Source: Candidatus Latescibacterota bacterium (GTDB lineage: Bacteria > Latescibacterota > UBA2968 > UBA8231). From it: a stretch of 64,000 nucleotides of DNA. Numbering within the stretch: the first letter of the stretch is position 1; each line of letters begins with the position of its first letter. Under the pieces are notes generated by a model. It made no database searches. It was not told the origin of the DNA and saw only the letters and a list, made by a program, of their open reading frames with translations. Shown here piece by piece: positions 1,703 to 28,560 of this stretch. Made by a program: the position numbers and the translations under genes. The stretch lies in the NCBI GenBank assembly GCA_965203175.1, contig OZ241867.1:2528001-2592000 (forward strand). Direction: 5' to 3'.

Positions 1703-2605
1703 CTACTGAGCGGCCTTGATCTGGCCCCAGCTCACGTCCTCGACGGCGGTCGCGGACTCCATCTCCGGCAATAGCTGGTCCAGCAACACGTCGTTGGTGG
1801 CGGTGCAGCAGCTTTCCGGCGACATGGTCCAGAAGCCCTGATAGCTTTCGAGCGCACACTCGGTGCACGGCTCGTCGAAATCGCCCACGGTCACGGATGT
1901 GTGGATGATCTCGTCTTCCGCGAGGTCGAAGATCACGGCTTGCTCTGGGGTGGCCGACTCGTCGTTGGGCATCGAGATGATCGGCGTGATAGCCAGTTCG
2001 TAGTAATAGGTGCTCTCGCCGAACTGCTCGCCATCGTAGCCCCAGCCGAAAGTGATAAAGTCGCTGCCATCTACGAACCACTCCAGCGCCCGCACCGGGC
2101 GGTAGAACTGATAGGCACCTTCCACCGGCGGCACGGCCCATTTGTAGCTAAAGTTGTTGGCCGGCTCGCCTTCGAGGTTGTGCTCCTCAGTCGGCGTGTG
2201 GTCGGGATTGACCTCTACTTCCCAGGCGTCGTCCTGCCAGAAGGCCGAGGGGTTTTCGCGGTCCAGGTTGTGGACATTGTCGAAGACCTCGGTCATGTAG
2301 TAGAGCTTATTCGCGTTGTCGTTCCAGCCGATGAGGTGGCGAATGTTAATGTCGCTGACGTCGATCTCGCCACGACCCACGGGCTGGATATCAGCCACCG
2401 GCGAATAGAGACGGTCGTTGCGGATCGTGTACGGATCGATCGGCACGACGTCCCAGTCCGACAAGTCGCCGTCCATGGTGGGGACGAGATTGTCGGGGAA
2501 CTGCACGGCGAAATAGAGTTCGCCGGGAGGCGCATGGCCAAAGGACGTACCGCACAAGCCCATGACCAAAGCTGCCGCTAAAACGAATTTGGTCCGCTCT
2601 TTCAT
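1703..2605 (-). CDS. Secreted CBM9-like/DOMON-like sugar-binding protein with C-terminal WGQIK motif
   Basis: Signal peptide; PTMDGDLSDW, IGWND...LYY...V.DN and WQDDAWEV are typical of CBM9-like domains; ends TAVEDVSWGQIKAAQ; strong RBS AAGGAGG. Confidence 0.65.
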   Translation of the reverse strand: MKERTKFVLAAALVMGLCGTSFGHAPPGELYFAVQFPDNLVPTMDGDLSDWDVVPIDPYTIRNDRLYSPVADIQPVGRGEIDVSDINIRHLIGWNDNANKLYYMTEVFDNVHNLDRENPSAFWQDDAWEVEVNPDHTPTEEHNLEGEPANNFSYKWAVPPVEGAYQFYRPVRALEWFVDGSDFITFGWGYDGEQFGESTYYYELAITPIISMPNDESATPEQAVIFDLAEDEIIHTSVTVGDFDEPCTECALESYQGFWTMSPESCCTATNDVLLDQLLPEMESATAVEDVSWGQIKAAQ

Positions 2606-2721: not shown

Positions 2722-4842
2722 TCAATAAGCGACTGAGAGGATGCCGACGCGTTCTTCCTTCTCTTCTAGCTGCAGCCGCCAGATATAGGTGCCCGGAGAC
2801 ACGAGATGCTGAGCGGCGTCGCGGCCGTCCCAGCGATGGGCGAATTCGCCGCTGCGCGCGGTGATGGGCGGCAGCTCGACTACGAGTTGGCCGGCGAGAT
2901 TGTAGATCGCCAGTTGCACCGGGCGGCTAGCCGTGACTTCGCGCAGCTTATAGGCGATTTCGACAGTCTCGTTCACTCCGTCGCCATTCGGCGTAAGCGG
3001 GTTGGAAGTCACGGCAATATCGACGAGGAGCCGGCCGCCGACGGGCGTGTTGACGGCGATGGCATCGCCTGAAAAGCGAAAGGTGGCGTTGCCCGGGCGA
3101 ACTTGCTGCTTGATCTGGTCGGGGTCGTTGCTGTCGAAGACCCAGCCCGAAAACTCAGTACCAAAGCGCAGGACCGGCACCACAAAGCTCACTTCGAGCT
3201 GTTTGAAGCTGTCGTCTTCGCCTTGCAAGCGGGGGAAGGACACCACAAAGTGGTCGTCTTGTATATCTGGAACAAAGGCGTTCAAGTCGAGTTCGGTGCC
3301 GTCGCGTTTGACCGCAGAGACGGCTTGGACTTGGGCATGGGTGCGGATTTCCAGCCGGTCGAAGCCGGTGTCGTCAGCGGTAAATTCCGGCCGGATGACG
3401 TAGGTAAATTCCGTGGGCGCGAAGGAATCGACGGCAATGGGCCACACTTCACCGAGGATTTCTCGGGCAGCCGGCGCATCGCCGAATTGGATCGTGAGTG
3501 AGCGGATGCGCGGCGCAGTGGTAAAGGTAGAAAACAGGCGAAAGGCGAGTTGGATGTAGCGGCTCGGCCCAGGCGACAAAAGCGGCGTGCCGTCGCGCCA
3601 CGCTTCAGCCGGCTCGTCGCTGTCGCGCAAACCCGCGGCAAAGTCGTAGGGCGGTGACCAGAAGCTCCAGTTGTCGGTGTCGTACACGGTGGGCAGGCGA
3701 CCGGACGGGTCGAGCTTTTCGTATTCTTTTAAGGTGATCGGACGGATGTCGCCGTTGATGTTTTCGTCGAAGTAGAGGCTGGGATCGGGGGTGTTGCCAG
3801 TGCGGGTGCGAACCTCGATGCGGGTGCCCTCGGGCACGTCGGCGTCCCAGCGAATTTTGCCCCAGTTGATTGGCTGGCCAAAGTCGAGAATCTGGGTGAC
3901 GAGGACGGTCTCCTCGACAAAGCCCTCGCCGTACACCTCGAATTCGGCGACCTCCCAGTCGCGCAGAGGAAAGGCTTGGGCGGTGATGTAGCGGATCGAC
4001 TCGGTGGGAAAGCGCAACTCTACTACGGGATCGAGATTTTCGCGGTTGGATTCGATTACGGTAAGCGCGGGGTCTTGGTTGCGGACCCAGCGCAGGCCTT
4101 TAGTGACGCGGCTGACTCGGTCACAGGGGCTGTTGGCAAAGCGCACGTTGTTGTCGCCTTTGCGCAGCTCGTACCAGGCGAGGAAGTTGGCGGCGAAGCT
4201 GTCTTCGCCAAATGCCTCTAGGGGCGGCTTAGGCTCAGTGAGCTCCTCGATGAGCAAGATGTCGTCTTCCTGTCCGAGGCGGGGAAGAAAGCGGATGCGG
4301 TTGACTGGTACAGCTGTGCTAAAGTCGATGACCACGGAGTTTTTCCAGCCTTCGCCGGTGACCCCGGCGACGATTCTGCCGCCGCTGAAGATGCCTTGGC
4401 CTGGGGTGAAGCGGCGGAAGTGGGCTGTGGTGAAATCGCCGTCGAATTGCTTTTTCACGGCGCGGATCTGGTCGTCGCGGGCCGAGCAGCCGTCGGTCGT
4501 CTGGATTTGGCCTCCAGTGTACGGCAGTAGAGTGTTGATGTCCGCGGCATTGGGGTCAATCAGGGTTAGGTTGACCGCTGGGTCGATGAAGCGCGGCCCG
4601 ATGGCGTTGTCGGCAAAGTCGATGAGGGTATCCGCAGCCGCGCCGTGGGGCGTGACGCCCACGGGTTCGGTGCCCACGAGCTGGCCCTCGGCATCAAACA
4701 GCCAGTACTCACCGGCTCCTTCTTCAGACAGCAAGCTGGGCCAAGGATTGCCCTCGTCTCCCCCGACGCGAAACTCCCCGCGGCTGTGCGCCGGCGCAAT
4801 CGATAGGACGAGCAGGAAACACGAAGCAATGATGTACTGCAT
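2722..4842 (-). CDS. Large secreted protein, discoidin-like region + C-terminal FlgD-Ig/T9SS-B-like domain (paralog A)
   Basis: Signal peptide; VVIDF..VPVNRIRF, EVAEFEVYG, RTRTG, WSFWS, SPGPSRYIQ, NPLTPNGDGVN, WDGRD..PGTY; ends VAY. Confidence 0.75.
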   Translation of the reverse strand: MQYIIASCFLLVLSIAPAHSRGEFRVGGDEGNPWPSLLSEEGAGEYWLFDAEGQLVGTEPVGVTPHGAAADTLIDFADNAIGPRFIDPAVNLTLIDPNAADINTLLPYTGGQIQTTDGCSARDDQIRAVKKQFDGDFTTAHFRRFTPGQGIFSGGRIVAGVTGEGWKNSVVIDFSTAVPVNRIRFLPRLGQEDDILLIEELTEPKPPLEAFGEDSFAANFLAWYELRKGDNNVRFANSPCDRVSRVTKGLRWVRNQDPALTVIESNRENLDPVVELRFPTESIRYITAQAFPLRDWEVAEFEVYGEGFVEETVLVTQILDFGQPINWGKIRWDADVPEGTRIEVRTRTGNTPDPSLYFDENINGDIRPITLKEYEKLDPSGRLPTVYDTDNWSFWSPPYDFAAGLRDSDEPAEAWRDGTPLLSPGPSRYIQLAFRLFSTFTTAPRIRSLTIQFGDAPAAREILGEVWPIAVDSFAPTEFTYVIRPEFTADDTGFDRLEIRTHAQVQAVSAVKRDGTELDLNAFVPDIQDDHFVVSFPRLQGEDDSFKQLEVSFVVPVLRFGTEFSGWVFDSNDPDQIKQQVRPGNATFRFSGDAIAVNTPVGGRLLVDIAVTSNPLTPNGDGVNETVEIAYKLREVTASRPVQLAIYNLAGQLVVELPPITARSGEFAHRWDGRDAAQHLVSPGTYIWRLQLEEKEERVGILSVAY

Positions 4843-4987
4843 GGCGTCTCTTCCTTGAGATGCTGATAATATAAAAAAAGAAGAGGTCGATTTGGCAAGT
4901 TAAGATATGCACACGGCGCACCTTATTTAACTTGATTTATGCCTGTACTTTGATTGTTTTATGCAGCAAACCGCACGGAGGATGGAC

Positions 4988-7078: not shown

Positions 7079-7183
7079 CGCATCAATCTCTCCAACCGAT
7101 TTTACTTGCACTCGTGGGTCGCCGAGTAGCACATGCCCGAAAACGGCCCAGCGGCTCGCGTTGTGCATCGAGAAGTCGCTGGA

Positions 7184-9397
7184 TCAGCCACCGAAAATTT
7201 GTTCGATTTGGGCTTCCATTTCCCGCCGCGCCACCTTTTCTATGCGGTGGGCGCGTTGGCTGCGGCTAAAGGCCGCGAATTGGGCATCCGCGTCGGCTTG
7301 GCGTCCGGTGCGTTGGTAGAGGTGCCCGAGGAATAGGTGCGCTTGGTAGTCGCGCGGAGCGATCTGGAGCAGATGCTCAAACAGGGGCACGGCCTCTGCA
7401 TAGCGTCCTTGGCGGGCGTAGAGCATGCCCAAGCTCCAATGGGGATGCGCGATCTTGGAGTCGAGCGCAATGGCGCGGCGCAAGAGTTCTTCGGCCTCAG
7501 CTAGTTGAGTTGTCTGCCCGAGGGTCATGCTCGTTCCTTGTTCGGACTGGATGAGCAGGTCGGCGAGGCGGGCTGGGTACTCGGGCACGTGCGGCTCGCG
7601 CTGCATTAGCTGCTCAAACTCGGCGATGGCCTCGCGGTTTTGCCCCTGCGCCGCGTACAGGCGGGCCAGTTGATAGCGCACGAGCGTCGAGTCTGGGTTC
7701 AGTTTGAGCGTGCGGCTATAAGCTCGGGCAGCGCGTTGGGGTTGGTCCGTCATCAGCAGGGCGTAGCCGAGGCCGCCGTGCGCGGCCGCCCAGTTGGGAC
7801 GCGCAGTTGCGACCTCGGAGTACGCGGCCGCAGCCTCGTCGTAGCGCCGAGCGAGCAGCGCGGTGTGGCCAAGGAGAAAGCGCACGTCCACGTCGTTAGG
7901 CTGCGTTTTAAGGTAGCGCCGATAGAGGTCGATGGCCTTGCCATAGCGCTCGGCCTCGCCGTGGAGTGCAGCGAGCGCGAGGAGTGGTTCGGCGAAGGTG
8001 GGATCGCGAGCAATAGCGTGGCGGTAGTGGCGGGCGGCGTGGGCCGGCATGTCCCGTTCCTCGTACGCGTAGCCGAGATAGTAGTGCTCGTGGGCATCGC
8101 CCTCTCGGTCCATCGCGCCCGTGGCCACATTGCAAAAGATCAAGAGTGCAGCAACGGCGGCGAGCGCGGGCCAAGGCCGCTGCCACAGGGCGCACACCCC
8201 ATAAGCCGCAAACAGCAACAGCACGGGCACGGTCGGTAGGCGATAGCGCCCGGTGACGAAAAACAGGACTACGGAAAGCGCATAGCAAGCCACAAAGAGC
8301 GCCAGCAAGCGCCCCTCGGGAGATTCGGAGGCACGCAGAAAGGCAAAAAACCCCAATAGGGCCAACGGGGCGACCAAGCCGAAGGGAAACGCCAGCCCTT
8401 TTTTCCACAGCAGGATCGACAAAAGCGAAGAGTCATTGCGGGCGAAGTAGAGGTCGCGGTTGCGCGGGATTTCGTCACCGCGCAGGAATAGGTAGCCCTT
8501 GTAGGCTAGCAAGCCCAAGAAATCGAGCGGCTCGGAGGCCATGTACTGCCAAGATTGGGCAAAAAAATAGCGCGACTTGGCCGAAGGCTGCTCAATGCCA
8601 GCGCGGCGTTCGGGCATTTCCACTAGCTCGGCCCAATCCCGTCCCGGGCGGATGTGGGTCGTTTGCGCGTAGTCGGCGTTGTTGCCGATGTAAAAGTTGA
8701 TACCCGCGTTGTGCGAGATGAGCACTAGATCGCCGCCGACTGCCCAGTTGCGATACGCGACCGGCGCGATGACCAGCGCACAGCCCAAGAGCAGAAAAGC
8801 CGCCGGGCGCAGCCGCCGCTGTCGCCAGTAGAGATAGCCCAACAGCATGGGCGCGAAGAGCAGCACGTTGGCCACGGCGAGCGCGGACAGGCCCAGCAGC
8901 ACGCCGGCGGCTAGCCAGCGCACCCAACCACCCTCGCCGATTACGAGCAGCAGTACGATCAAGTTGAGGCAACAGGCCAGCAAGGTTGGCAGCAACGCGC
9001 CGCCAAAGTAGATGAGGGGACCGTACAATGCCGCGGCAACCCCCGCGCCGAGTCCAATCCCCGCGCCAAAGACCCGGTACCCCAACAGGCAGATGAGAAC
9101 GCAGACGAGTGCGCCTATGACGGCTTGGATGAGTCGCGGCAGGTAGAGGTCATCTCCGGCGAGGGCAAAGAGTCCGCCGAGCAGCACGGGGTAGAGTGGC
9201 GGTTGCCAGAAGGGCGCGGGCCGACCCGCAAAGGAGACTTCGCTGAAGTAGCGCGCTTCCTCGGTATAGGTGCGGGCATCGACGACAGGAGCGGTGAAAA
9301 GCGGGCTGGCGCGTATTTCGTGAAGGTAGTACAGGCGCGCTGAGAGGGCGAGCGCAAAGACGACCACTCCCCCCATGAACATCCAGCGTCTAGCCAT
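7184..9397 (-). CDS. GT-C (GT39/PMT/ArnT-like) membrane glycosyltransferase fused to C-terminal TPR repeats
   Basis: VVDARTY...FWQPPLYP, about 11 hydrophobic segments, NAGINFYIGNN, RYRLP, then about 8 TPR-like repeats. Confidence 0.8.
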   Translation of the reverse strand: MARRWMFMGGVVVFALALSARLYYLHEIRASPLFTAPVVDARTYTEEARYFSEVSFAGRPAPFWQPPLYPVLLGGLFALAGDDLYLPRLIQAVIGALVCVLICLLGYRVFGAGIGLGAGVAAALYGPLIYFGGALLPTLLACCLNLIVLLLVIGEGGWVRWLAAGVLLGLSALAVANVLLFAPMLLGYLYWRQRRLRPAAFLLLGCALVIAPVAYRNWAVGGDLVLISHNAGINFYIGNNADYAQTTHIRPGRDWAELVEMPERRAGIEQPSAKSRYFFAQSWQYMASEPLDFLGLLAYKGYLFLRGDEIPRNRDLYFARNDSSLLSILLWKKGLAFPFGLVAPLALLGFFAFLRASESPEGRLLALFVACYALSVVLFFVTGRYRLPTVPVLLLFAAYGVCALWQRPWPALAAVAALLIFCNVATGAMDREGDAHEHYYLGYAYEERDMPAHAARHYRHAIARDPTFAEPLLALAALHGEAERYGKAIDLYRRYLKTQPNDVDVRFLLGHTALLARRYDEAAAAYSEVATARPNWAAAHGGLGYALLMTDQPQRAARAYSRTLKLNPDSTLVRYQLARLYAAQGQNREAIAEFEQLMQREPHVPEYPARLADLLIQSEQGTSMTLGQTTQLAEAEELLRRAIALDSKIAHPHWSLGMLYARQGRYAEAVPLFEHLLQIAPRDYQAHLFLGHLYQRTGRQADADAQFAAFSRSQRAHRIEKVARREMEAQIEQIFGG

Positions 9398-9410
9398 GGG
9401 CACTACACGC

Positions 9411-12074
9411 TTATTGCAAGCCCGCGTAGATCGAAATAAAGATCTGATTAATAATCACCGCGTCCTCGCCCCGTGGCTGGCGGCGGTCGATTTTCATGCC
9501 CGCATGGGTTGTGACCTTATAGCCGAGATAATCGGAGATATTGGCCAACTGCAAGGCCCAGACTAGGCCGTTGAAGTCGTTGGAGTCGCGCTTCAGGTCG
9601 TTGAGGAAGGTCATCTCCAGCCCGCTCATCAGGGTTGTGTGGCTGAGCAGGGGAAAGCCGAGGATGAAGCCGCCGATCTCGGCCAGTTCGGTGCGTTCGT
9701 CGGCTGAAATCAGGTCGCGGCTCTGACGGCGGTACTCGCTTTTCCAGCGCGGCTCTAGCCACAGGTGCCCAAAGTCGAAGCGGTAGCTGATTTTGTTGAT
9801 TAGGCCAAAGAAAAAGTCGCGCTCGCGCAGGCCCAACAGCGCGCGCTCATTGGCACTCAGCCGCTGGTGGTACAGGTCGTATTTGAGGTAATTGGCCGTC
9901 AGCAGGCCGCGCAGCTTGTAGTCGTGGCCGACCCACAGGCTGTTGATCCAAGCGTCGCGAGCGATGAGAGGATCCTCGACTTTGGTTGGTTCACCAGTGC
10001 GGATATTGGCATTGGGCAGCCACTGCAAGAGGTCGTCGGGGATGTCGTCGGTCGTGGACTTGAGCATCTCGAAGACGCGGAAGCGGCCCCAATCAGGGGT
10101 GTCGCGGTCCAGGGTCAGCAAGACGTAATTGGCATGGTTTTTTTGGATAGAAGAAATGAGACCCTCGCGCAGGACGCCGACCATCAGCCGCAACTCCGGG
10201 GTGAAGTGGATGCCGCCATAGGCGTTGTACCCTCGGTGATCCTTCTTGTAAGGGTAGTCGGGCAGTTCGTCGTTTTCAAAGCGATCGACCCATAGGTTGT
10301 TGTTCAGGTCGATGCCGAAGAGGAATTCGGGCCGATCGACGTTGTGGCGCAGGAACGGCTCCTCGTAGTCCGGGATGAGGTTGCTCAAGAAGCGGTTGTC
10401 GTTCTGGTTGAAATCCGAGATGAAGTCGTTGTTCTCATCCCAGCCGGGAAAGACGCTCGGATCGCCGACTTGCCAGTCCTTGCGCACGGTGTCGGGAAAT
10501 TCGTCTTGGTCGTCGTTGTCCTCGACTAGCTCGACGACGTGGATGCGTTCGTCCTCGTAGTCGATAAAGCCATCGCCTTGGGCGGTGAACGTGCGGGTGG
10601 AGTAGCGAGGATCCATGCTGTATGCCTCGCCGAAGAAGAAAAAGGGAAACGCGACCCGCGAGAGGTTCATCATCCACGCGGAGGCGGCGCGGTCGCCGCG
10701 GATGCCCGAGAAGGTGGTGTGAGTCTTGGCGACTACATTGGGATATTTGGTGTAGTTATAGCTGAGATCGTACTCGCCGTAGAAGTCGAAGCCGAGGACC
10801 TGTTGCAGCTCTAGGGTTCCTCCCCAGATCTGGGTGGAGGTCGGCAGGCCGTAATCGAAACTGACGATCTGCAAATTGGTGTTGTCTTGGACATTGCCCT
10901 CGGCTTGGGCGACGAGCAAAAGCACGGACTCGCCGCTGGCGTTGAGCTGGCTGTCGGAGGTGACCCAGACCTGATAGTCGTTGCCCAACACGAGGCGGAA
11001 CTCGACCTTTTTGATTTCTTCTTTGGTGCCCGAGGAGCGGTTGACAAAGGCCGGACTGTCAAAGTCGTAGCGCAGGCGAATTTCCTCGACGCCGTCGGCC
11101 GAAAGGAAGCCCTCCCCCACGAGGCCACCCTCGATGATCGGTTCAAAGCGGATGGCCTTGCCGTTGTCTTGCGTGCCGTCGAGATAGGTGATGATGATGT
11201 CCGAACCAGCGCTGAAGAAGGCCGCGCCGCCGACACCGTCCTCGGGACTGTCGTCGCGCAAGACGATTTCGATGATCGAGACGGTCTGGTTCTGATCGAC
11301 CGATAGCTCGCCGGTGAAGGGGTTGCCGGTAAATCCGTCGATGAGGGTGTTGGACTGGTGGGCGTTGACCATCGTCAATCCTATGGTGGCGAAGTCGCCC
11401 ACCTGCGCGGTGGTGCGGCTGCCGAACATGGATGTGGCGTTGGTGACCAAGCTCTCTTGATCGTTGGTTGACGTGCCGCCGGGTCGGCTGATGCGCGAAT
11501 AGATTAGAGTGCCTTGGTATTTGTCGGCCGCGTAGTCGAATTGAATGCCGTCCCAACGCGGCTTGGAGAAGGTCATCGGCGTCAGGGTCGAGCGAATCTT
11601 AGTGCCGGCTGTCAGGGCGTAGTGATGCTGGCCCTTGGAGTCGGCCGAAATGACCAAGCCGCTAAACCAGCCCTCGAAATTTCTGGACTTCAGCACGGAA
11701 GAGCCAAACTGTCGAGGCTGGGTCTGCGAGTTGTTGAAAACCAGCCAGCCTCGGGTGATGAGGTTGCCGTAGAGGTCGTAGTAGTAATCGCCTTCGCGGA
11801 TGGCGCTGACGTAGCGCTGGTAGTGATCGCGGGCGTAGTTGGAGTATTCCCACTGCCGCCACTGGTATTCGTTAAAAAGCTCCTGCGGCACGTACCACCT
11901 GCGCTTAGCCGGGTCGAGGGCGCCGAACAGGACGCCGGACCCCTGTGGTTCAAAGGAAACCACCCCACCCCTTTTGACCGTGCCGAGGCGAGCGCCGTAT
12001 TCTTGGGCTTCGGCAGCAACGCTGCCGAGCCACAGAATGGCTATTGCCGTCCAGAATATCCGTCTCCGGTTCAC
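9411..12074 (-). CDS. Large exported hypothetical protein (887 aa), possible outer-membrane beta-barrel with acidic Ca-binding-like loops
   Basis: GTG at 12074 after RBS GAGGAGG (the ORF-track start 12257 overlaps the upstream gene); signal peptide ending AEA-Q; aromatic-rich with D/N-rich loops; amphipathic-looking strands ending ISIYAGLQ. The barrel call is inference. Confidence 0.6.
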   Translation of the reverse strand: MNRRRIFWTAIAILWLGSVAAEAQEYGARLGTVKRGGVVSFEPQGSGVLFGALDPAKRRWYVPQELFNEYQWRQWEYSNYARDHYQRYVSAIREGDYYYDLYGNLITRGWLVFNNSQTQPRQFGSSVLKSRNFEGWFSGLVISADSKGQHHYALTAGTKIRSTLTPMTFSKPRWDGIQFDYAADKYQGTLIYSRISRPGGTSTNDQESLVTNATSMFGSRTTAQVGDFATIGLTMVNAHQSNTLIDGFTGNPFTGELSVDQNQTVSIIEIVLRDDSPEDGVGGAAFFSAGSDIIITYLDGTQDNGKAIRFEPIIEGGLVGEGFLSADGVEEIRLRYDFDSPAFVNRSSGTKEEIKKVEFRLVLGNDYQVWVTSDSQLNASGESVLLLVAQAEGNVQDNTNLQIVSFDYGLPTSTQIWGGTLELQQVLGFDFYGEYDLSYNYTKYPNVVAKTHTTFSGIRGDRAASAWMMNLSRVAFPFFFFGEAYSMDPRYSTRTFTAQGDGFIDYEDERIHVVELVEDNDDQDEFPDTVRKDWQVGDPSVFPGWDENNDFISDFNQNDNRFLSNLIPDYEEPFLRHNVDRPEFLFGIDLNNNLWVDRFENDELPDYPYKKDHRGYNAYGGIHFTPELRLMVGVLREGLISSIQKNHANYVLLTLDRDTPDWGRFRVFEMLKSTTDDIPDDLLQWLPNANIRTGEPTKVEDPLIARDAWINSLWVGHDYKLRGLLTANYLKYDLYHQRLSANERALLGLRERDFFFGLINKISYRFDFGHLWLEPRWKSEYRRQSRDLISADERTELAEIGGFILGFPLLSHTTLMSGLEMTFLNDLKRDSNDFNGLVWALQLANISDYLGYKVTTHAGMKIDRRQPRGEDAVIINQIFISIYAGLQ

Positions 12075-12144
12075 CTTGCAATCCCTCCTCAGTAGATGTA
12101 CATGGTGCGTCAATGATAATCGGCCCCGGGCGTTCCAGCAATAA

Positions 12145-15100
12145 CTAGTAGGCCACGGCGATAATCCGCGCTTGGGTCGTCGGCTGCCCTGTGGCGTCGG
12201 CGTCGAGTTGGACTTGGCACAGATACAGCCCAGGCGGTGCACGGCGGCCGTGGTCATCGACGCCGTCCCAACGCACGGTGGTGCGGCCGCTCAGCACCAT
12301 CTCCTCGCGCTGCCAAACCCGTCGCCCATCGAGCGTGTAAATCTGCACTTGGAGGCGGCGGCTAGAAGTGAGCTTGAAGATATCCAACGAGATTTCAGCC
12401 GCGTCGTTGATCCCGTCGCCGTTGGGGGTAAAGGGGTTGGGACCGACTGCGAGACCATGGACGAGATCGCTGTCGATGGGGACGTTGATTGAGAGCGTGT
12501 TGCTGGCGATGCCTTCGTCAGCGTCGCCCGCTTCAACGGCCTGCCATGCCACTTCGGCGTCGGCGCTTGCTGCATTGCGCACGAACAGGCGCAGGGTCGT
12601 GCCGTTGAGAAAGACCGGCGCTGAAAGGCGCAAGCGGAAGCGCTGGCCCGGCCCGGTCACAATGCCGCGCTCGCCCGCGGCGAGGCGGTTGTACGCGCGC
12701 GAGTCGAGCGAGTCGCCGCGGGCGTCAAAGGGGAATTGGGCTCCGTCGCCGCGCAGAATGCGGAAGAAGCGGACGGGACCTTGCTCCTCGCCGGGCAGGT
12801 CTTGGTAGCTGGTTTGGTCAATCTCGCTGAGCTGGTCGCCGTTGCGGCGGAAGTAGCGGATGGCCCCCCGTTCGTCTTCGTCGAGGGTGCCGTACGCCGC
12901 GCCCGTAAGCGGCAAGCCGTCTTGGGTCACAGGCACCTCTTCGCCTTCAAGGGTAATGCGATTGTACGTGCGGCTGGCTGCGGGCAGGATGTTGAGCGCG
13001 TCGTCTAGGCGCACCCAGATCGAGTCGCCGCCGTTGGCCAAAAGCGCGGCTTGCGTCTGGTCGCTGGCTGTGAACACGCCGCGCTCGGTCCCAGGGCGAA
13101 AGACCTTTTCGCCATCTGGGCCGCTGATGCCAAGCTCCAAGAGTTCGAGCTTTTCCGAGGCCGGCATGGTCAGCAGAATCTCATTGAAGCCAGAGCTGCG
13201 CGAGGCCGCAGGCGACTCGATGAAGTAGGGCTGAGCAAAGACGTCAAAGGTCTCCCGCACACCGGAGACTTCCACCGAGGCCGGCCACAGCTCGGCCGCG
13301 ATGCGCTCGGCCACGGGATTGAGCAGTTCGACCGCGAGCGAGCGGATCGAAGCTGCGGCCTCACGGTCGGTGGTAATCATCTCGACTTGGAACTGCATGA
13401 ATTTGCGCAGACCGGGGGAAGTGACGATATCGCCAGGCTGCTGGTAGGCGCGGCTCCAAGGGCTCCAGCCACTGGTGGACACAAAGGTGGTGTCGGCTGG
13501 CCCCTTGAGTCGGGCCAAGAGGTTTTTCCAAGCGTCATAGGTGATTTCGTTGCCCGTTTTGTCGAAGTAGCGAATGACCTTGCCCAGCAGGTCGCCGGTG
13601 CGGGTTCGGATTGCGACGGTCGTACCTGGGGGTGTCTCGGCCTCCCAAGTAATGGCTCCGAAGTTGCGCGCCCCAGGCAGCGCAATAAGGTCGGAGGTCA
13701 GCACTACTTGCGCTGGATAGCCCGTGGAAAAAAGCTGGTACTCGGCAATGTTCGGCCCGGTGTTGTACCCGCCTCGACGGCGCGGGTCCGCCGAGATGAT
13801 GCTTATTTCGAGAAAGCGGAGCTTGGGGCTAGGATCATAGGTGTCGAGAATGTGTTGAAAGCGGTCGCGGCTATTGTCCTCGCGAAAGCGGGGACTGAGG
13901 CGCGACCACTTGATCTTGCCGCGCGTGTCGCGCGAGCCGTCGGAGCCTCGGATCAAGTACCCGTCTATATAGGGCCGGGGCCGGGTCGAGGAAATGCGCA
14001 TGGCGTCGAGCCAAAACGACGCGCCCATATCAACGGTGAGCACGCCGCGGTCGATGGTCGGCGACCAAACCAGGTGCAGGAAGTTGGTGTTGAAATCCGC
14101 GTCGAAAGCCGGTCCTGGTATGAAACCGTCGCCGGTCAGGTCGAGCTGGCCGCCGCCGGCCACCAAGCCGTTGCTGATGTTGTCGCCAAATCCGTACACC
14201 TCGATTCCGGCTAGACGCGGCCGTTCGCGTCGGTAGTAATCCAAACGGCCTTGGCGCTGGGGGTCGAGGCTTTCATAGATCGCTTGCTCGACCGGCTCTT
14301 CAAAGCCCTGTTCGTCGCGGATGAAATAGATGATCGCGCCGCGCTCATCGGCTGGCAGGGTTTGCCATTCCTCTTCGCTGATGCGCTCGCCGCGCTCGCC
14401 GCGGGTATCGCTGACCACGATGCGGATGGTCTCTACCAGCTTGCCCTGCCAGCCGGGGTCGGCATTGAGTTGTTCGAGACCAATGCGGAAGGTGCGCTGG
14501 TCGCGGTTGGGGGCTTTGGTGTTGGCGATGCGTTCAAAGGTGATTTTGTCGGCGTTTTCTTGCACCGGCTCTTGGTCGGGCGCGGCGAGGACGCGGAACT
14601 GGAAGAAGGGATCGCCTAGTTCTTCTTCGACAAAGTGAATGACGAGGGAATCGACCGCCACGACGCGACCCAAGTCTATTTCGATCCACCAGTCGTCGAT
14701 CGGTGCCTGCGGGTCGGGCTCCCAGAAGGTGGTTGGATCGTCGTCGAGGATGTTGGCGGCTGCGGCCGCATTCGAGCCGACGCGGCTGATGCCCGGACGA
14801 AAGAAATAGGAGTAAATGGGGTTGCCCTTGCGGTCGGCGATGATCTCGCCTTTCACGTCGCGGGTCTGGGTGCTATCGATGTTGAGGATGGCGGTTTGGT
14901 TACTGCGGCGACGCAGCTCGGGGATGGGGCGGGTAAAGGTCTCTAGATCGTCGAGCAAATTGAAGTGCTCGCGAAAAAAGTGCGGCTCGACCGTGCCGTC
15001 CGGCGATACCTTCACGGCGTGGGTGGGGAGCTGCCAGTTGTGCCAGTGCGCGGCTCTGTTGACTACTACGGAGCGGCTGGTGACGCGATGGCCTTTTTGG

Positions 15101-15156
15101 GCGTCGGCTGCGAGCAGCGGTGCCAAGCAGATGACGAGAAACGCTAAGAGTCTCAT
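12145..15156 (-). CDS. Large secreted protein with discoidin-like domains + C-terminal FlgD-Ig/T9SS-B-like domain (paralog C)
   Basis: Signal peptide; ILDDDPTTFW...WWIEIDLGRVVAVD (F5/8C-like), IAEYQLF, RTRTG, WSPWS, SPGLRKFMQ, PNPFTPNGDGIND, WDG..PGLY; ends VAY; RBS AGGAGG. Confidence 0.75.
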   Translation of the reverse strand: MRLLAFLVICLAPLLAADAQKGHRVTSRSVVVNRAAHWHNWQLPTHAVKVSPDGTVEPHFFREHFNLLDDLETFTRPIPELRRRSNQTAILNIDSTQTRDVKGEIIADRKGNPIYSYFFRPGISRVGSNAAAAANILDDDPTTFWEPDPQAPIDDWWIEIDLGRVVAVDSLVIHFVEEELGDPFFQFRVLAAPDQEPVQENADKITFERIANTKAPNRDQRTFRIGLEQLNADPGWQGKLVETIRIVVSDTRGERGERISEEEWQTLPADERGAIIYFIRDEQGFEEPVEQAIYESLDPQRQGRLDYYRRERPRLAGIEVYGFGDNISNGLVAGGGQLDLTGDGFIPGPAFDADFNTNFLHLVWSPTIDRGVLTVDMGASFWLDAMRISSTRPRPYIDGYLIRGSDGSRDTRGKIKWSRLSPRFREDNSRDRFQHILDTYDPSPKLRFLEISIISADPRRRGGYNTGPNIAEYQLFSTGYPAQVVLTSDLIALPGARNFGAITWEAETPPGTTVAIRTRTGDLLGKVIRYFDKTGNEITYDAWKNLLARLKGPADTTFVSTSGWSPWSRAYQQPGDIVTSPGLRKFMQFQVEMITTDREAAASIRSLAVELLNPVAERIAAELWPASVEVSGVRETFDVFAQPYFIESPAASRSSGFNEILLTMPASEKLELLELGISGPDGEKVFRPGTERGVFTASDQTQAALLANGGDSIWVRLDDALNILPAASRTYNRITLEGEEVPVTQDGLPLTGAAYGTLDEDERGAIRYFRRNGDQLSEIDQTSYQDLPGEEQGPVRFFRILRGDGAQFPFDARGDSLDSRAYNRLAAGERGIVTGPGQRFRLRLSAPVFLNGTTLRLFVRNAASADAEVAWQAVEAGDADEGIASNTLSINVPIDSDLVHGLAVGPNPFTPNGDGINDAAEISLDIFKLTSSRRLQVQIYTLDGRRVWQREEMVLSGRTTVRWDGVDDHGRRAPPGLYLCQVQLDADATGQPTTQARIIAVAY

Positions 15157-15189
15157 GGTGCCCTCCTGAGGATCTAGTCATAGTTGAAG

Positions 15190-15219
15190 CAAATAGGTCG
15201 AGATGCTCGTCGTTGTCAA
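15190..15219 (-). promoter_or_regulatory. Candidate sigma70 promoter for paralog C and downstream genes
   Basis: TTGACA-18 nt-TATTTG on the minus strand about 35 nt upstream of ATG 15156; the -10 is imperfect. Confidence 0.35.
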
Positions 15220-15322
15220 GGTTTAAAGAGAAGCCACATGCCTGCCTTCCACCGGGAAAAGGACTCCAGCGCGTCAGGTACATCGGCAAAGGCCGCCAAG
15301 CACAGGACGCGGAAGCGGCGAC

Positions 15323-16771
15323 TCACGGCCCTTGATCCAGCTCGCCTAGCTTGGCCCGGGCGCGCTGGTGATCTGGGTCGAGGGCGAGCACCTTTTGCAG
15401 GGTTTGCCGCGCTTGTTCCCGCTGTCCTTGCTGCATGAGGATCAGCGCCAGCCCATAGTGCGATTCCGCGTGGTCTGGGTCGAGGGCAATGCTGCGGGCG
15501 AAATGGGCGCGGGCATCGCGGTAGTTGGTTTGGCGGACATAGGCTAGCCCGAGGACGTAGTGGGCGTCGCGGTGGTCGGGATTGCGGGCGAGGGCTTGGC
15601 GCAGCGCGGCAACGGCCCCGGCAAAGTCGCCGCTTTTGAAACGCGCGCGGCCCAAGCCATAGGCAGCGGCAAACGAGTCGGGATCGATCGCCAAGGCACG
15701 GGCAAAGTACTCGTCGGCTTCTTTGGGCATACCCTCGTGCAAGTACAGGTCGCCCAGCATGATATAGGCGTCGCGGTGGTCGGGATTGCGGGCGAGGACT
15801 TGCTCCAGCGCGGCGCGGGCGTCGGCGAAGCGCTTTTGCTGCGCGTACACAGTGGCGAGACGCAGGCGAATGTCCACGGAAGTAGAGTCGCTGGCGAGGG
15901 CGCGCTTTAGGGAGTCGATCGCCTTGTCCCACGCGCGTTGGCGGATGTAAATGTTGCCCTGATTGAGGTGGCGTTCGGCCGCGCTCAACTGCTGGAAGCG
16001 CCCCTGCGCGTTGCGGGCGTCAGCGGGGCGGTCGCCCTCGGCGTAGGCTTGGGCCAACAGGTAGTGGGGAGCGGGGTTGTGCGGGTCGGCGTCTGCGGCG
16101 CGCTCGAGCACGGGAATGGCCGCTGTGGGTTCCCCGAGGCGGATGAGCAGGCCGCCCAAGCCTATGCCACCTTGAACGTGGTCGGGATCGCGGGCGAGTA
16201 GGTCGGCAAAACCGGTACGCGCTTGGGACAATTGCTGGTTGCGCACGAGCAGGTCGCTGTGGTAATAGCGGGCCTCAAGGTGGTCGGGCACGAGTTCGAT
16301 GGTGCGTTTGAACGCTGTGAGTGCGCCCGCAAAATCGCCGGTGGCGCGGCGCATCTCGCCTAGGTAGAAGTGGTATTTGGCGCGTTCGGGCGCGAGGGCG
16401 ATGGCTTGCTCCAGATGAGCTGCGGCCTCTAGGTAGCGGTGCTGGTCGCGCAGCACCGCGGCGAGGGCAAAGTGAGCGTGGGGCTGATCGGGCGTCAGGG
16501 CCAAGGCGCGTTCAAAGGCTGCGATGGCGAGCGCGGGCTGGTCGCGCCGAGCGTGAGCTAGGCCCTTTTGAAAATGGGCGGTGCTCGACGTGGAATCGAG
16601 TGCCACGGCCTGTGTGAGCTCTGCTAGGGCGCGGGCGGGCCGGTCCTGTTGCAAAAAAAGCGTGCCGCGCTGGAGCAAGCGGCGGGCTTCCTCGGGTCGC
16701 GCCGCGTCCTGCGGGTCGGGTTGGTCGGCGCAGGCGAGTGCGCCCAAAATCAGCAACAGGCGCGCGGTCAT
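15323..16771 (-). CDS. TPR-repeat lipoprotein
   Basis: Lipobox-like ALAC followed by about 12 consecutive 34-aa TPR units (A..A...P....A...LG). Confidence 0.9.
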   Translation of the reverse strand: MTARLLLILGALACADQPDPQDAARPEEARRLLQRGTLFLQQDRPARALAELTQAVALDSTSSTAHFQKGLAHARRDQPALAIAAFERALALTPDQPHAHFALAAVLRDQHRYLEAAAHLEQAIALAPERAKYHFYLGEMRRATGDFAGALTAFKRTIELVPDHLEARYYHSDLLVRNQQLSQARTGFADLLARDPDHVQGGIGLGGLLIRLGEPTAAIPVLERAADADPHNPAPHYLLAQAYAEGDRPADARNAQGRFQQLSAAERHLNQGNIYIRQRAWDKAIDSLKRALASDSTSVDIRLRLATVYAQQKRFADARAALEQVLARNPDHRDAYIMLGDLYLHEGMPKEADEYFARALAIDPDSFAAAYGLGRARFKSGDFAGAVAALRQALARNPDHRDAHYVLGLAYVRQTNYRDARAHFARSIALDPDHAESHYGLALILMQQGQREQARQTLQKVLALDPDHQRARAKLGELDQGP

Positions 16772-16774
16772 CGC

Positions 16775-18418
16775 TCAGGTGCCTTGGACCAGCGAATCCG
16801 GCAGGGCGGCCTTGAGGGCGCGCTCGTCGATCTCGACTCGGCTCTGATAGCGCTGGCGCAGGTCTTTGACGAAGCTGGTGAAGGCCGCGTTTTCCCGTTC
16901 GCGGCGCAACAGAGCGCGGGCGCGGCGCTGGACCTGCTCGTACGGTTCGACCCTGCCGGGGTTGCGTCCTTGGACGCGGAAAATAGAGTACCCGTCGCGC
17001 ACTCGGATTGGCCCGACGAGCTGACCGGGTTCCGCCGCATAGATGGCCGGGACTAGGCGCGGATAGAGCTTCTCGTCGCGCGGATGGAAGTGGAAGCGCG
17101 CTTGCGACTGGACCGCTTGGGCGCGCACGCTGCGGTCGGCGAGATCGGCAAAACTCGCGCCAGCAGCAAGTTGATCGCTGAGCCGCTGGGCCTCGGTCGG
17201 GCTGGATGCGAGCAGTTCTTCGACCTCGACGGATTCTTCGTGATAAAACATGTCGGGATGACTGTCGTAGTACTCCCACACCTCGGCGTCGGAGAGCATT
17301 TCGACGGCTGCGAAGCGGTTGCGCACGGCGTTGAGTAGCGCGTCTTGGTAGGCCCTCTTGGCTAGTCGTTGGACGTCTGGGTCGTCGTACAGGTCCTGTT
17401 CGCGGGCGGCGCGGCGCTGGAGGAGGGGGCGCAGCACTAGCCTGTCTAGCGTGGTGCGTGCGCGCGTGCTGTCTTTGAGGCTGCGCTGGGCATTGAGCCG
17501 CCGCAATGCCTTATAAGCCGCGGCGACTGTGGCCTGGCCCTCGGCAAAGGTGTAGAGCGGCGCGGTGCACGTGTCGAGCAGCGCGCCGTCTTCCCGCTGG
17601 GCCGCGCTGAGCATGAGTTGCAGCCCGTCGCGGTCGAGGGCCGCCCCAGCGGACGCACGAAGCGACTCAAAGTGCTCGGCCTCAACTTGGGCTAAGCGCT
17701 CCCTGAACAACTGCTCCTCGACGAGGGGCCGGTAGCGCTCGTAGGGCGTGTCGCGGTCTTCGGTGAAGCGGACGATGTGCCAACTAAGGCCAGCGCGCAA
17801 AGGAGCGGATATTTCCCCCAAGGGCAGCGTATTGAAGACCTCGGCCGGAATGTGCAAACTGGGCGCGGCCTCGCGGCCAATAAAGCCCAACTCGCCACCC
17901 TGTTCGGCCGAGCGCTTGTCGAGCGAGTGGGCGCGGGCCACTTCGGCAAAGGGCTGGCCGGCGTCGAGGGCCGCCACAGCCGCTTCGATTTCAGCGCGGG
18001 TGTGAACCAAGATCGCGTTGAGCTTGCGCTCGCGGTGGTAGCCTTCCTCGGCAAAGACGCGCCGCACCTCCTCTTCGGGCACTTGCACCTGAGCGGTTAT
18101 GTTGCGCGCCCGATAGAGGGCGACAACCCGCGCATCCACGGACTCATCCACAGCGCGTCTTACCGAGCGCAGCGTGTCTAGTCCGTGGGCGATGGCCTCT
18201 TTGAGGATTAGTTGGCGGTCGATGAGCGATTGCACGTATTGCCGCCGCGCCGCATCGCCGCCTTCGGGGTTGCGCAAGCCTGGGGGCAGCTTTTCGACAA
18301 AGGACCGCAGGCTCTCTCCTGAGATGGGCACTTCATCGACTCGCGCTATGGGCGCGTTCGTTTCTTGAGAACAGGCCGCGAGGGCGATAGTGATAGCGAG
18401 TATGTATAGAGGAGGCAT
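16775..18418 (-). CDS. PpiC/parvulin-type peptidyl-prolyl isomerase lipoprotein (PrsA/SurA-like foldase), two-module
   Basis: Lipobox LAAC; FAEVARAHSLD..SAEQGGELG...GEISAP...WHIV; second degenerate module FADLADRS...GQLVGPI...GYSIF. Confidence 0.85.
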   Translation of the reverse strand: MPPLYILAITIALAACSQETNAPIARVDEVPISGESLRSFVEKLPPGLRNPEGGDAARRQYVQSLIDRQLILKEAIAHGLDTLRSVRRAVDESVDARVVALYRARNITAQVQVPEEEVRRVFAEEGYHRERKLNAILVHTRAEIEAAVAALDAGQPFAEVARAHSLDKRSAEQGGELGFIGREAAPSLHIPAEVFNTLPLGEISAPLRAGLSWHIVRFTEDRDTPYERYRPLVEEQLFRERLAQVEAEHFESLRASAGAALDRDGLQLMLSAAQREDGALLDTCTAPLYTFAEGQATVAAAYKALRRLNAQRSLKDSTRARTTLDRLVLRPLLQRRAAREQDLYDDPDVQRLAKRAYQDALLNAVRNRFAAVEMLSDAEVWEYYDSHPDMFYHEESVEVEELLASSPTEAQRLSDQLAAGASFADLADRSVRAQAVQSQARFHFHPRDEKLYPRLVPAIYAAEPGQLVGPIRVRDGYSIFRVQGRNPGRVEPYEQVQRRARALLRRERENAAFTSFVKDLRQRYQSRVEIDERALKAALPDSLVQGT

Positions 18419-18433
18419 AGATATTTTTTCCTT

Positions 18434-20383
18434 CTAATATACAGGTGTTCGATTGCCGACCATGCCGGTAAAGCCATCCACCACCAGCCACAGGCCGGCG
18501 GCAACGAACTGGCCGAGCACGACCCCGACGAAAAAGGGGCGGGTGAGAAGGTACGTGCGGGGACCGCCGTATTTGAGGACGGTGATCTTGATGAGCCAAG
18601 CTAAGAAGATCGAAAACCAGATGCTGTTCATTACCCAACCGGTGCTCACGGCAAAGCCGAGCGGGTGAAAGGGCCACCACACGAAGAAGTGGCGGGCGGT
18701 CATCAAGCCGCCCATGATCAGAGCGCCAAAGCCCGTCCACAGCCACCCGACGAGGCTCGGCCCCGTGGGGTTGGCGAGCTTTTTCGCGGCAAAGTCCGAG
18801 GGATATCTGGCAAAGCCCGTGAAGTACTGAGGATGCAGATTGAGCGCGCCGTCGCGGTACGCTAGGTAGAGCATAAACCAGCAGGAGACCACGAGGCTGA
18901 TGAGCATGGCCGCGACAATCGCCCAAAAGAGCGGGCGGCGGGTACCCTTGATCACACTGCCCAAGCGCAGGCTGTTGGCTAGGGGCGCGGTCATAAAGAC
19001 CAACAGGTCCCCCGTCCAGACAAAGGAGTAGCCTGTGGCGACCATGCCCGGCGCACCGAGGGCGGGAACTCCAACGCCGGAAACGACAAAGCCGGCTGGG
19101 ACCATCTCTGGGGTTACGGTGGGCATGCCCGCTTCGGCGATGACGCGCGCTAGGCCGATGAATATGACCAGCGATGAGAACAGGAAAAAGGGCACGATCC
19201 AAGCCGGAATCCCGCTCTTCCACAGCCAGAAGCCCATCGTGCTGGCACCGCCGACGAAGAGCCAAAACGCGGCCCGATAGGAAAGGATCTCCGCAGAGTC
19301 GTCGATTCGGTCGTCGCCCCACAGGGCCTTGCGCAGGACGTTTTTGAGGTGGGGCCGCGCCGTCCACAGCCCATAGAACACCAAGACGATGAGCGCGCCC
19401 ATCATCTGATGCCCCATGATCGCGCCCACCGGCCCAGACCCAGTCCAAGGCCCCAACTCCTCAGGGCTGAAGATGCCGATGTAGCGGAAGATGCTTTCTT
19501 GTATTACGTGCAGCAGGTAGAAAAACCACAGGCTGAAGGCGATATTGGAGTTGATAAAGTACGCAAAGCCGAACATCAGAAAGTTGATGCGGATGTTGAG
19601 CGAGGCCGTGCGGTTGAATAGTTCGACGCTGGTCTGGAGGGCGAGGGAAGGGACGAAGTTGAAGTAGTGGTGCAGAGCGTTGGTGCTGTTGAACAAGAAG
19701 GGCAGTAGCAAACCGCACCACATGATGGGGTTGCGAAAAAAGGGTTTGAGGCTTTTTCGCTCGCCCTCGTCGTCTTGGATCATGGCGAGGGGGACTTGGG
19801 CCAGCGGAAAAACGAGGCGCTCGTTGTCAACCCACTGGCGGCGCAAGATGGATATGGCCGCGATAATGGTTGCGTAGAGCGCCGCGTAGAATGCAAACCA
19901 GCGTCCGAGCGGCTTGAGCCAGACGTCATAGGGGATGGCCGAGCCTTTGGTGCCCTCGTAAAATGCTTTTACCGCGACCGGGTCGTACACCACCATCCAA
20001 TCGGAGAGAAACGGGTGGACTAAGTCGGCCCATTGGTTTTCGGGAGTGGCGTAGTAGAAGGTGCCGGTGATCATGGGCAGCAGCATGCCCACTACGCCGC
20101 GCGTGGGGATGGCCGTGGCGACGGCCATCATGGCGAAGATGACGACCAACTCGCCGCGCCGAAAACCCCAGCGTCCCAAGGCGACTTGGACAGTCAGCAG
20201 CAGGACGAACAGCAAAAAGAACGCCGCTGGCGTGGCCGAGCTCAGCCCGAGACGCGAGCCTTGGATGACCATGCTGCCATAGGGAATGCCGATGGCAATG
20301 CCCAAGCTCAGCGCGGCACCGATGAGGATGCTCCGGCCCGTAATGGCGGCCGATGCATTGTCAGAAGAGTCGATTTCAGCCAT
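18434..20383 (-). CDS. Polytopic membrane protein, DUF6785/DUF6784-like (putative transporter)
   Basis: About 16 hydrophobic segments with LRRQWVDNERLVFPL, RVIAEAG, WWPFHPLG, LIKITVLKYGG and PFFVG. Confidence 0.75.
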   Translation of the reverse strand: MAEIDSSDNASAAITGRSILIGAALSLGIAIGIPYGSMVIQGSRLGLSSATPAAFFLLFVLLLTVQVALGRWGFRRGELVVIFAMMAVATAIPTRGVVGMLLPMITGTFYYATPENQWADLVHPFLSDWMVVYDPVAVKAFYEGTKGSAIPYDVWLKPLGRWFAFYAALYATIIAAISILRRQWVDNERLVFPLAQVPLAMIQDDEGERKSLKPFFRNPIMWCGLLLPFLFNSTNALHHYFNFVPSLALQTSVELFNRTASLNIRINFLMFGFAYFINSNIAFSLWFFYLLHVIQESIFRYIGIFSPEELGPWTGSGPVGAIMGHQMMGALIVLVFYGLWTARPHLKNVLRKALWGDDRIDDSAEILSYRAAFWLFVGGASTMGFWLWKSGIPAWIVPFFLFSSLVIFIGLARVIAEAGMPTVTPEMVPAGFVVSGVGVPALGAPGMVATGYSFVWTGDLLVFMTAPLANSLRLGSVIKGTRRPLFWAIVAAMLISLVVSCWFMLYLAYRDGALNLHPQYFTGFARYPSDFAAKKLANPTGPSLVGWLWTGFGALIMGGLMTARHFFVWWPFHPLGFAVSTGWVMNSIWFSIFLAWLIKITVLKYGGPRTYLLTRPFFVGVVLGQFVAAGLWLVVDGFTGMVGNRTPVY

Positions 20384-20398
20384 GTTTTTTAGGTGTTG

Positions 20399-24177: not shown

Positions 24178-24230
24178 GGGGTTGTTTCCTTGTTTTGTAA
24201 TCGTCTTTCCCGAGGAACTCATCATTCTTC

Positions 24231-28476: not shown

Positions 28477-28478
28477 GG

Positions 28479-28520
28479 TCAATTGCGAATTAGGAATTAG
28501 GAATTAGGAGTTGCGAATTG
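28479..28520. repeat. Heptamer tandem repeat, GGAATTA-like x6
   Basis: TCAATTG CGAATTA GGAATTA GGAATTA GGAGTTG CGAATTG; same unit and orientation as 22959-22993. Confidence 0.85.
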
Positions 28521-28560
28521 GATTGGTTTGGCGACTCAGTAATAAGTTCATGATTGGGTC

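Follow-up and report, generated by a model that had tools for sequence, protein, structure and literature searches.

The 64,000-nt window of DNA analysed here (positions 2,528,001 to 2,592,000, forward strand, of contig OZ241867.1 in the Candidatus Latescibacterota assembly GCA_965203175.1) carries a minus-strand gene for an 887-residue protein that is predicted to be a giant outer-membrane beta-barrel and belongs to a family without a name. The gene lies directly downstream of that for cargo C, a protein with a signal peptide and a type-B-like C-terminal domain (CTD), and its paralogs and homologs are nearly always found in the same position behind genes for similar cargos. The family is new, within a variant of a known logic in which a type B cargo is accompanied by a dedicated barrel; its function is what we infer below. 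The barrel gene and the three cargo genes of the window are as follows.

9411..12074, minus strand: predicted giant outer-membrane beta-barrel of an unnamed family, 887 residues (open reading frame, homologs, model)
12145..15156, minus strand: cargo C, 1003 residues, signal peptide and type-B-like CTD (last ~100 residues, PNGDGIND...IIAVAY); CHU_C 33.6 bits, TIGR04131 16.2 bits
4961..7078, plus strand: cargo B, 705 residues, type-B-like CTD; CHU_C, CTD profile
2722..4842, minus strand: cargo A, 706 residues, type-B-like CTD; CHU_C, CTD profile

The 887-residue protein and its predicted fold

The barrel gene, on the minus strand, starts with a GTG codon at position 12074 and has GAGGAGGGA a few bases before it. 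The longest frame (9411-12257) would give 948 residues from an ATG; this start was rejected because it overlaps the 3' end of the upstream cargo C gene, and the 887-residue form is supported by full-length homologs of 887-891 residues that align from residue 1. The gap between the cargo C gene, whose stop codon is at 12145-12147, and the barrel gene is 70 nt; the coordinates and the gap agree with those of an earlier note on this DNA. The G+C content of the window is ~60%. RNA contigs from four libraries (three studies) match the barrel gene at 90-99% identity, one of them over 518 nt (9475-9992) with 6 differences; this is a weak hint of expression, as DNA carry-over is uncontrolled and contigs give no level.

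The sequence features that the earlier note had listed were all present in the translation. The N-terminus (residues ~1-23, VNRRRIFWTAIAILWLGSVAAEA/QE) resembles a signal peptide, with RRR, a hydrophobic stretch and AEA/QE as judged by eye, and an aromatic-rich stretch occupies residues 60-80 (WYVPQELFNEYQWRQWEYSNY). Three stretches rich in D and N (residues 518-528, 546-560 and 589-602) have D/N positions that are invariant across 44 homologs and mostly more than 90% conserved across 78 more diverse ones, a conservation that places these stretches far from chance. The protein ends in FISIYAGLQ, and the earlier note had taken its final Gln, in place of an aromatic residue, to weaken the case for a barrel. 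The Gln is there, but the non-aromatic end is a family trait: the family C-terminus is F-[IV]-[TS]-[IV]-[YF]-A-G-L-x, in which the near-terminal motif F-x-T-x-[YF]-A-G-L-x is conserved, and only 4/62 paralogs end in F or Y.

An AlphaFold model built from 78 homologs (down to ~25% identity) reached a mean predicted local distance difference test score (pLDDT) of 83.5 and a predicted TM-score of 0.81, and replaced an earlier, poor model built from 44 close homologs (pLDDT 62.4). In the newer model, long beta hairpins follow one another from approximately residue 140 through the last residue, leaving no C-terminal domain. The hairpins reach the C-terminus in both models, in agreement with the C-terminal strand run listed in the earlier note. 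The series is interrupted by a beta-rich insert at ~243-400, which was modelled confidently, and by the D/N-rich region at ~497-612. Only residues 19-48 and 57-90 have a pLDDT below 50; the N-terminal segment at ~24-90 is conserved, yet unmodelled.

A Foldseek search of the PDB returned 46 matches at E<=1e-3, every one of them a membrane barrel. The best were MtrB (6r2q_B, E 1.4e-7), 8agd_A (2.8e-7; SlpA/SDBC is among the matches) and 9fw9_D (1e-6), and the neighbours across the Foldseek and VIA lists also include FimD/PapC, LptD, TonB-dependent transporters, BamA and porins. TM-scores were 0.13-0.31 and identities 5-13%. In a VIA-align comparison with 48,161 chains, the 50 listed rows were likewise all membrane barrels, with Z declining smoothly from 13.8 to 9.2. 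Such a flat list indicates a shared architecture, points to no particular family and demonstrates no kinship. The model and its neighbours thus settle the fold class predicted for the protein as a large outer-membrane beta-barrel, the proposal of the earlier note, and not a soluble fold. From the DSSP string we estimate about 22-24 strands; with the C-terminus taken as periplasmic, strand parity would place the insert and the D/N loops on the outer side.

A numerous family linked to type-B-like cargo genes

The protein had been described as an orphan, a label that did not survive a search for homologs: at least 1,088 proteins match it at E<=1e-3 (8,000 candidates scored), as do 712 clusters at 50% identity. 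The best 120 homologs are 54-96% identical to it and nearly all 870-935 residues long; those among them that carry a name are all a 'hypothetical protein' of Candidatus Latescibacteria/Latescibacterota. With a family hidden Markov model (HMM; E<=1e-5), 62 family open reading frames (ORFs) were found in the window's own genome (6.58 Mb, single contig), and family members are 860-1050 residues long. The family was present (E<=1e-20) in 71 of 121 Latescibacterota genomes sampled, including 40/40 genomes of the window's own taxonomic family, and in 0/29 and 0/13 genomes of two other families. Some distant members carry Ignavibacteria or Bacteroidota labels as metagenome-assembled genomes (MAGs).

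No Pfam or NCBIfam model matched the 887-residue protein, a PDB sequence search gave 0 matches for it and 0 for cargo C, and just two single chance matches appeared when 44 family members were scanned against Pfam at E<=10. Its neighbours in the ESM Atlas were unnamed clusters; the nearest named cluster, DUF6029 (score 0.89), was set aside, being supported by no profile search. At ~890 residues the family is conserved across a phylum, and it occupies roughly 62 x 2.7 kb of the 6.6-Mb genome.

To define the cargos, we built an HMM from the C-terminal 110 residues of each of the three cargos in the window and searched the genome with it; 260 ORFs matched. The tails were sorted by a rule of our own that uses the final Y: 168 genes have type-B-like tails (PNGDGxND near the domain start and an [AV]Y end), 72 have type-A-like tails (NPFNP and a final K or R), and 8 are unclassified. 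All three window cargos exceed the Pfam CHU_C (PF13585) cut-off of 27, with 33.6, 27.3 and 39.3 bits, but fall below the TIGR04131 cut-off of 35, with 15.4-20.5 bits; we therefore call the tails 'type-B-like'.

When tandem genes were counted once, the 62 barrel ORFs formed 48 units. A CTD gene on the same strand was directly upstream of 42/48 units, compared with 4.2% of the 4,996 ORFs of the gene set, which was obtained by greedy selection and is not a curated annotation (binomial p ~1e-51). In the runs of CTD genes upstream of barrels, 73/75 genes end in Y. Within three genes of a barrel we found 99/168 B-like and 5/72 A-like genes, against 5.2% of all genes; the linkage is specific to type-B-like tails, and A-like tails are unlinked. 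By BLAST, the passengers of 113 B-like cargos located near barrels fall into a single family. In other MAGs, an ORF of ~1000-1200 residues ending in [AV]Y was directly upstream of the barrel gene in 64 of 67 testable loci (68 fetched), although these loci hold close relatives of the window's gene (58-99% identity) and cannot count as independent. The linkage of homologs to genes with VAY-ending CTDs, for which the earlier note had asked, was thus found both within the genome and elsewhere.

The divergence of barrels was correlated with that of their adjacent cargos (Mantel r 0.45 with the CTD, 0.59 with the passenger; 0/2000 permutations as high). This correlation demonstrates co-duplication of barrel and cargo, not binding. 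One barrel often follows three cargos, and the excess of cargos (168) over barrels (62) indicates that the pairing is not one to one. Of the B-like CTD genes, about one in three (54/168) lies more than five genes from any giant barrel, and some of these are strung together, with as many as seven cargo genes in a row (e.g., C1:5505519-5521029).

The remaining genes of the window's cassette are as follows.

7184..9403, minus strand: 739-residue membrane protein with a GT39/PMT_2-like N-terminal part, ~10 hydrophobic segments and C-terminal TPR; PMT_2 28.3 bits against a cut-off of 26.1, and matches to many TPR models
15323..16771, minus strand: 482-residue TPR protein with a lipoprotein-like N-terminus (cluster 6); profile matches
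16775..18418, minus strand: 547-residue SurA-like protein with two parvulin peptidyl-prolyl isomerase domains and a lipoprotein-like N-terminus (cluster 3); profile matches
18434..20410, minus strand: 658-residue DUF6785 and DUF6784 protein with ~9 hydrophobic segments (cluster 5); profile matches
1703..2605, minus strand: 300-residue secreted, CBM9-like protein (cluster 2); weak match, E 1e-3

Six genes of the cassette, cargo C and the barrel among them, follow one another on the minus strand at distances of 3-166 nt, in the order DUF6785/DUF6784, SurA-like, TPR, cargo C, barrel and GT39/PMT_2-like, the last lying 7 nt downstream of the barrel gene. The same gene families, together with FG-GAP/ASPIC proteins, recur around other barrels: the SurA-like cluster 3 has 32 copies near barrels, the DUF6785/DUF6784 cluster 5 has 17 and the CBM9-like cluster 2 has 33, with clear CBM9 matches in paralogs (E 8e-10 and 2.5e-7); the GT39/PMT_2-like gene (cluster 8) recurs as well. 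Genes for an ABC solute-binding protein, a DHDPS-family protein, PhyH, an FGE-sulfatase and a GDSL lipase appear occasionally. Cargo C has an F5/8 type C (discoidin) match at residues ~130-205 that is just under the cut-off (26.9 versus 28.2 bits), and the passenger of cargo B is homologous to those of cargos A and C. In the closest paralogous loci, two further cargos are followed by a second barrel, which is absent from the window's locus; since cargos A and B (2722-7078), which form a convergent/divergent pair, have no barrel of their own, we regard this locus as a one-barrel, three-cargo variant.

Two regions outside the cassette were also recorded. Genes for an ABC permease and a solute-binding protein lie at 26726-29814 (minus strand), ~8 kb from the cassette, and a similar solute-binding protein gene is located inside another cassette (L016:18087-19445). 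An AAA_21/AAA_15 (AbiEii-type) ATPase gene at 24800-26068 (minus strand) stands beside two ORFs without a family (23005-24234 and 24231-24803); the G+C content falls to 0.54 over 23005-26068, which may represent a small defence or mobile island.

Secretion genes and a distant branch with two barrels

Profile matches indicate that the genome carries genes of a type IX secretion system (T9SS). SprA_N matched a 2133-residue frame with 82 bits, PorU was matched with 632 bits (cut-off 420), and a PorV-like gene, with 147 bits under a cut-off of 250, directly follows porU (C1:2958744-2963097; L014/L088). The porU and PorV-like genes are the classic gene pair of the attachment complex, here in a Latescibacterota genome. 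TIGR03517 (GldM) was unmatched in the genome; the control genomes were equally silent, so that this carries no weight. The genome has 32 Plug matches, none of which (0/32) falls in a barrel-family gene.

A different arrangement was found in a distant branch, which we sampled as 54 metagenome loci around relatives of the distant member P0230. Profile alignment shows the barrels of this branch to be homologs of the window's family (782 columns; hhalign E 4.9e-85, probability 100%; ~29% identical), and they retain the acidic motifs in a DxDNDGIPD-like form. Upstream DNA was sufficient in 39 loci, and in every one of them a B-like cargo of ~540-630 residues is followed by a small-barrel position and then by the giant barrel. 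The position is filled by an ORF of 301-339 residues in 38/39 loci and by two short ORFs in the other (L112). The sole cargo scanned in this branch (L089) has an F5/8 type C match over the cut-off (36.6 bits). PorP_SprF matched the small ORF over its cut-off in 3 of the first 4 tested and matched 12/34 small barrels at E<=0.01, a set that includes three candidates from the window's own genome; one small ORF was placed in the PorV/PorQ family by NCBIfam (97.2 bits, cut-off 90). From these profile matches, the small ORF is classed as a T9SS shuttle-type (PorV/PorP-type) barrel, to which the giant-barrel profile is unrelated (hhalign probability 1%). The presence of both barrels side by side suggests that the giant barrel is an additional partner and not a simple stand-in for PorP/SprF.

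In the window's own genome, a lineage HMM built from these small barrels detected 10 small PorV/PorP-type barrels, and a small barrel is directly downstream of a B-like cargo at only one of 168 cargos. That divergent cassette (L143, C1:2790001-2808000, ~6923-17279), which we term 'ancestral-type', encodes a cargo of 552 residues, a small barrel of 286 and a giant barrel of 978, and continues with a 1090-residue TPR/YfiO-like protein, ExbB and two ExbD. Judged from gene order, the expanded Latescibacterota branch appears to have lost the small barrel from the cassette. Another small barrel (L144:5857-6792) precedes genes for a 1081-residue TPR protein, ExbB, ExbD and a DUF4159 protein.

Cassette cluster 7 (~260 residues) was considered as a hidden small barrel and rejected (hhalign probability 1.8%). 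One longer member of this cluster, encoded right after a triple-barrel cassette (375 residues; L019:6190-7317, minus strand; C1:6510190-6511317), scores at the borderline for TonB_C (26.4 bits in six-frame translation and 23.7 with hmmscan; cut-off 24.6). Cluster 7 was also discarded as a TonB, TonB_C being undetected in three shorter members (L016, L017 and L143).

Proposed role and comparison with known systems

With about sixty copies and a near-constant place after a secreted protein of sugar-binding type, the giant barrel probably forms the membrane-embedded core of a surface device for capture or display that has yet to be described. The form of this idea towards which we lean, and which we hold to be somewhat probable, is that the barrel and lectin-like proteins exported by the T9SS make up a complex at the cell surface, with the barrel as its core in the membrane and possibly also as a conduit. 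The lectin-like cargos, with their discoidin-type domain and a type-B-like CTD ending in VAY, would be exported by the cell's own T9SS and would stay associated with the barrel. The insert domain and the three invariant acidic D/N loops, which are candidate Ca2+ sites, would form the docking surface. The barrel would probably serve, in addition, as a conduit for material captured by the lectins, a SusC-like role without TonB-receptor ancestry. The recurrence of discoidin and CBM9-like domains, a SurA-like chaperone and the DUF6785 protein in the cassettes speaks for such a complex. A role beyond anchoring is favoured by the size of the barrel, its coexistence with a shuttle-type barrel, its partners of carbohydrate-binding type, the multi-pass membrane protein in the cassette and the ExbB and ExbD genes beside divergent copies.

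Several observations weigh against a complex of this kind. The contact between barrel and cargo is argued from gene linkage and not from direct evidence, co-duplication accounts for the Mantel correlation without any binding, and the cargo genes exceed the barrels (168 versus 62). In the distant branch, a shuttle-type barrel separates the cargo from the giant barrel in 39/39 loci, so that the cargo may be held by the small barrel and the link of the giant barrel to it may be indirect. The outward orientation of the insert and the D/N loops depends only on the strand-parity count from DSSP. With regard to transport, a plug, a TonB box and any transporter family were undetected, the Plug and receptor profiles giving no match in 44 members of the barrel family at E<=10; ordinary Plug-domain TonB-dependent transporters are already present, 31 of them exceeding the cut-off; and no glycoside hydrolase was found among the annotated cassette genes, a small sample.

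The best surviving alternative, which we regard as unlikely, is that the giant barrel has purely replaced PorP/SprF in the main Latescibacterota branch, pulling type-B cargo off the SprA translocon and holding it without forming a channel. It would fit the presence of only 10 small barrels in the genome, one of them after a B-like cargo, against 168 such cargos. Pfam PorP_SprF was also unmatched in this genome; no control genome matched it either, so that the absence carries no weight. However, the giant barrel does not resemble the small barrels in profile comparison (hhalign probability 1%; no PF11751 match) and is approximately three times their size, a single one often stands behind three cargos, and both barrels are kept adjacent in 39/39 loci of the distant branch, which argues for distinct roles. 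With the small barrel retained in every one of those distant loci, the suggestion of the earlier note that the protein is a larger, unrelated analogue of PorP/SprF is too simple.

We consider it quite improbable that the barrel is an independent channel or structural outer-membrane protein that is co-regulated with the lectins and forms no complex with them, the linkage reflecting a shared regulon or the duplication of cassettes. The cassettes do duplicate as units, so that adjacency is inherited; evidence of contact is absent; and the ABC solute-binding protein, DHDPS-family, PhyH, FGE-sulfatase and GDSL lipase genes suggest metabolic loci. Nevertheless, the order from cargo to barrel and the short gaps are kept in paralogs down to ~40% identity, the order is kept also in the branch that is ~29% identical in profile alignment, and linkage to one tail type, together with conserved order, is hard to explain by co-regulation alone. 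More improbable still is a dedicated, SprA-independent export pore for the adjacent cargos, an usher-like or two-partner-like translocon, for which the adjacency of cargo and pore genes, a usher-like beta-rich domain inserted after the first strands and the place of FimD/PapC among the better neighbours (Foldseek E 1e-6 to 1e-4; VIA Z 10.9 over 297-328 residues) can be cited, but against which stand the flat structural list (TM 0.13-0.31), where porins, BamA and LptD score equally well or better, the lack of an usher profile match in 44 members, an usher-type periplasmic chaperone not having been seen, the T9SS-type tail of the cargos (CHU_C in 3/3) and the SprA, PorU and PorV-like genes of the genome.

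Our preferred reading, a surface complex built on the giant barrel, can be set beside the T9SS of Bacteroidota, in which, according to PMC9143113 and PMC12618676, type B CTD cargos pair with cognate PorP/SprF-like shuttle or anchor barrels, as in SprB-SprF, Fjoh_3952-Fjoh_3951 and PG1035-PorP-PorE. As with PorP/SprF, the barrel gene described here is directly downstream of a type-B-like cargo, the linkage is specific to the tail type, and SprA and PorU are encoded in the genome. Unlike PorP/SprF, the window's barrel has 887 residues instead of ~300; no match to PF11751 was obtained in 44 members of the family at E<=10, nor any to TIGR03519 or Pfam for the protein itself. The giant barrel further differs in its inserted domain and acidic loops, its 62 copies, its frequent place behind three cargos and, in the distant branch, its coexistence with a small barrel of PorV/PorP type. 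Through its strict pairing with a single class of T9SS tail, the rule of type B cargo plus cognate barrel is extended outside Bacteroidota, and the three-gene form (cargo, small shuttle barrel, giant barrel) is a concrete, testable architecture.

Our literature searches found no description of the cassette, and Latescibacter* together with type IX secretion was absent from the full-text literature searched; looser searches (T9SS, PorP, SprA, outer membrane) returned Bacteroidota work only. In passages of PMC4454575 on Latescibacter*, only non-specific porins and Plug-domain receptors are mentioned. The pairing of barrel and cargo gives an idea of how uncultured Latescibacterota associated with sponges and sediments construct their surface and, possibly, feed.

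The cassettes also resemble SusC/SusD loci, in that dozens of diverged copies per genome combine a ~900-residue barrel with surface proteins bearing discoidin and CBM9-like domains, and some divergent giant-barrel cassettes adjoin ExbB/ExbD genes. In contrast to SusC/SusD, they have no Plug or TonB-dependent-receptor domain and no SusD, and the binders are T9SS cargos rather than lipoproteins. TonB-dependent transporters are among the structural neighbours of the barrel and do not rank above other barrels, with residues 19-48 and 57-90 unmodelled. A bolder proposal, which we advance tentatively and would sooner doubt than accept, is that the giant Ca2+-loop barrel and the type-B lectins, ancestrally with the small shuttle, make up a third kind of T9SS-coupled outer-membrane component next to the translocon and the small PorV/PorQ/PorP shuttles, a SusCD-like capture-and-import machine in ~48 cassettes that is unrelated to TonB-dependent receptors.

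In fold class and size range the protein resembles its best Foldseek matches, MtrB and LptD (26 strands each), FimD/PapC (24) and the Deinococcus SlpA (30). To our knowledge, there are few kinds of large outer-membrane barrel, and the known ones each do a central job, be it lipopolysaccharide insertion, pilus assembly, TonB-dependent uptake or T9SS export. The family described here appears to be another kind of large outer-membrane barrel.

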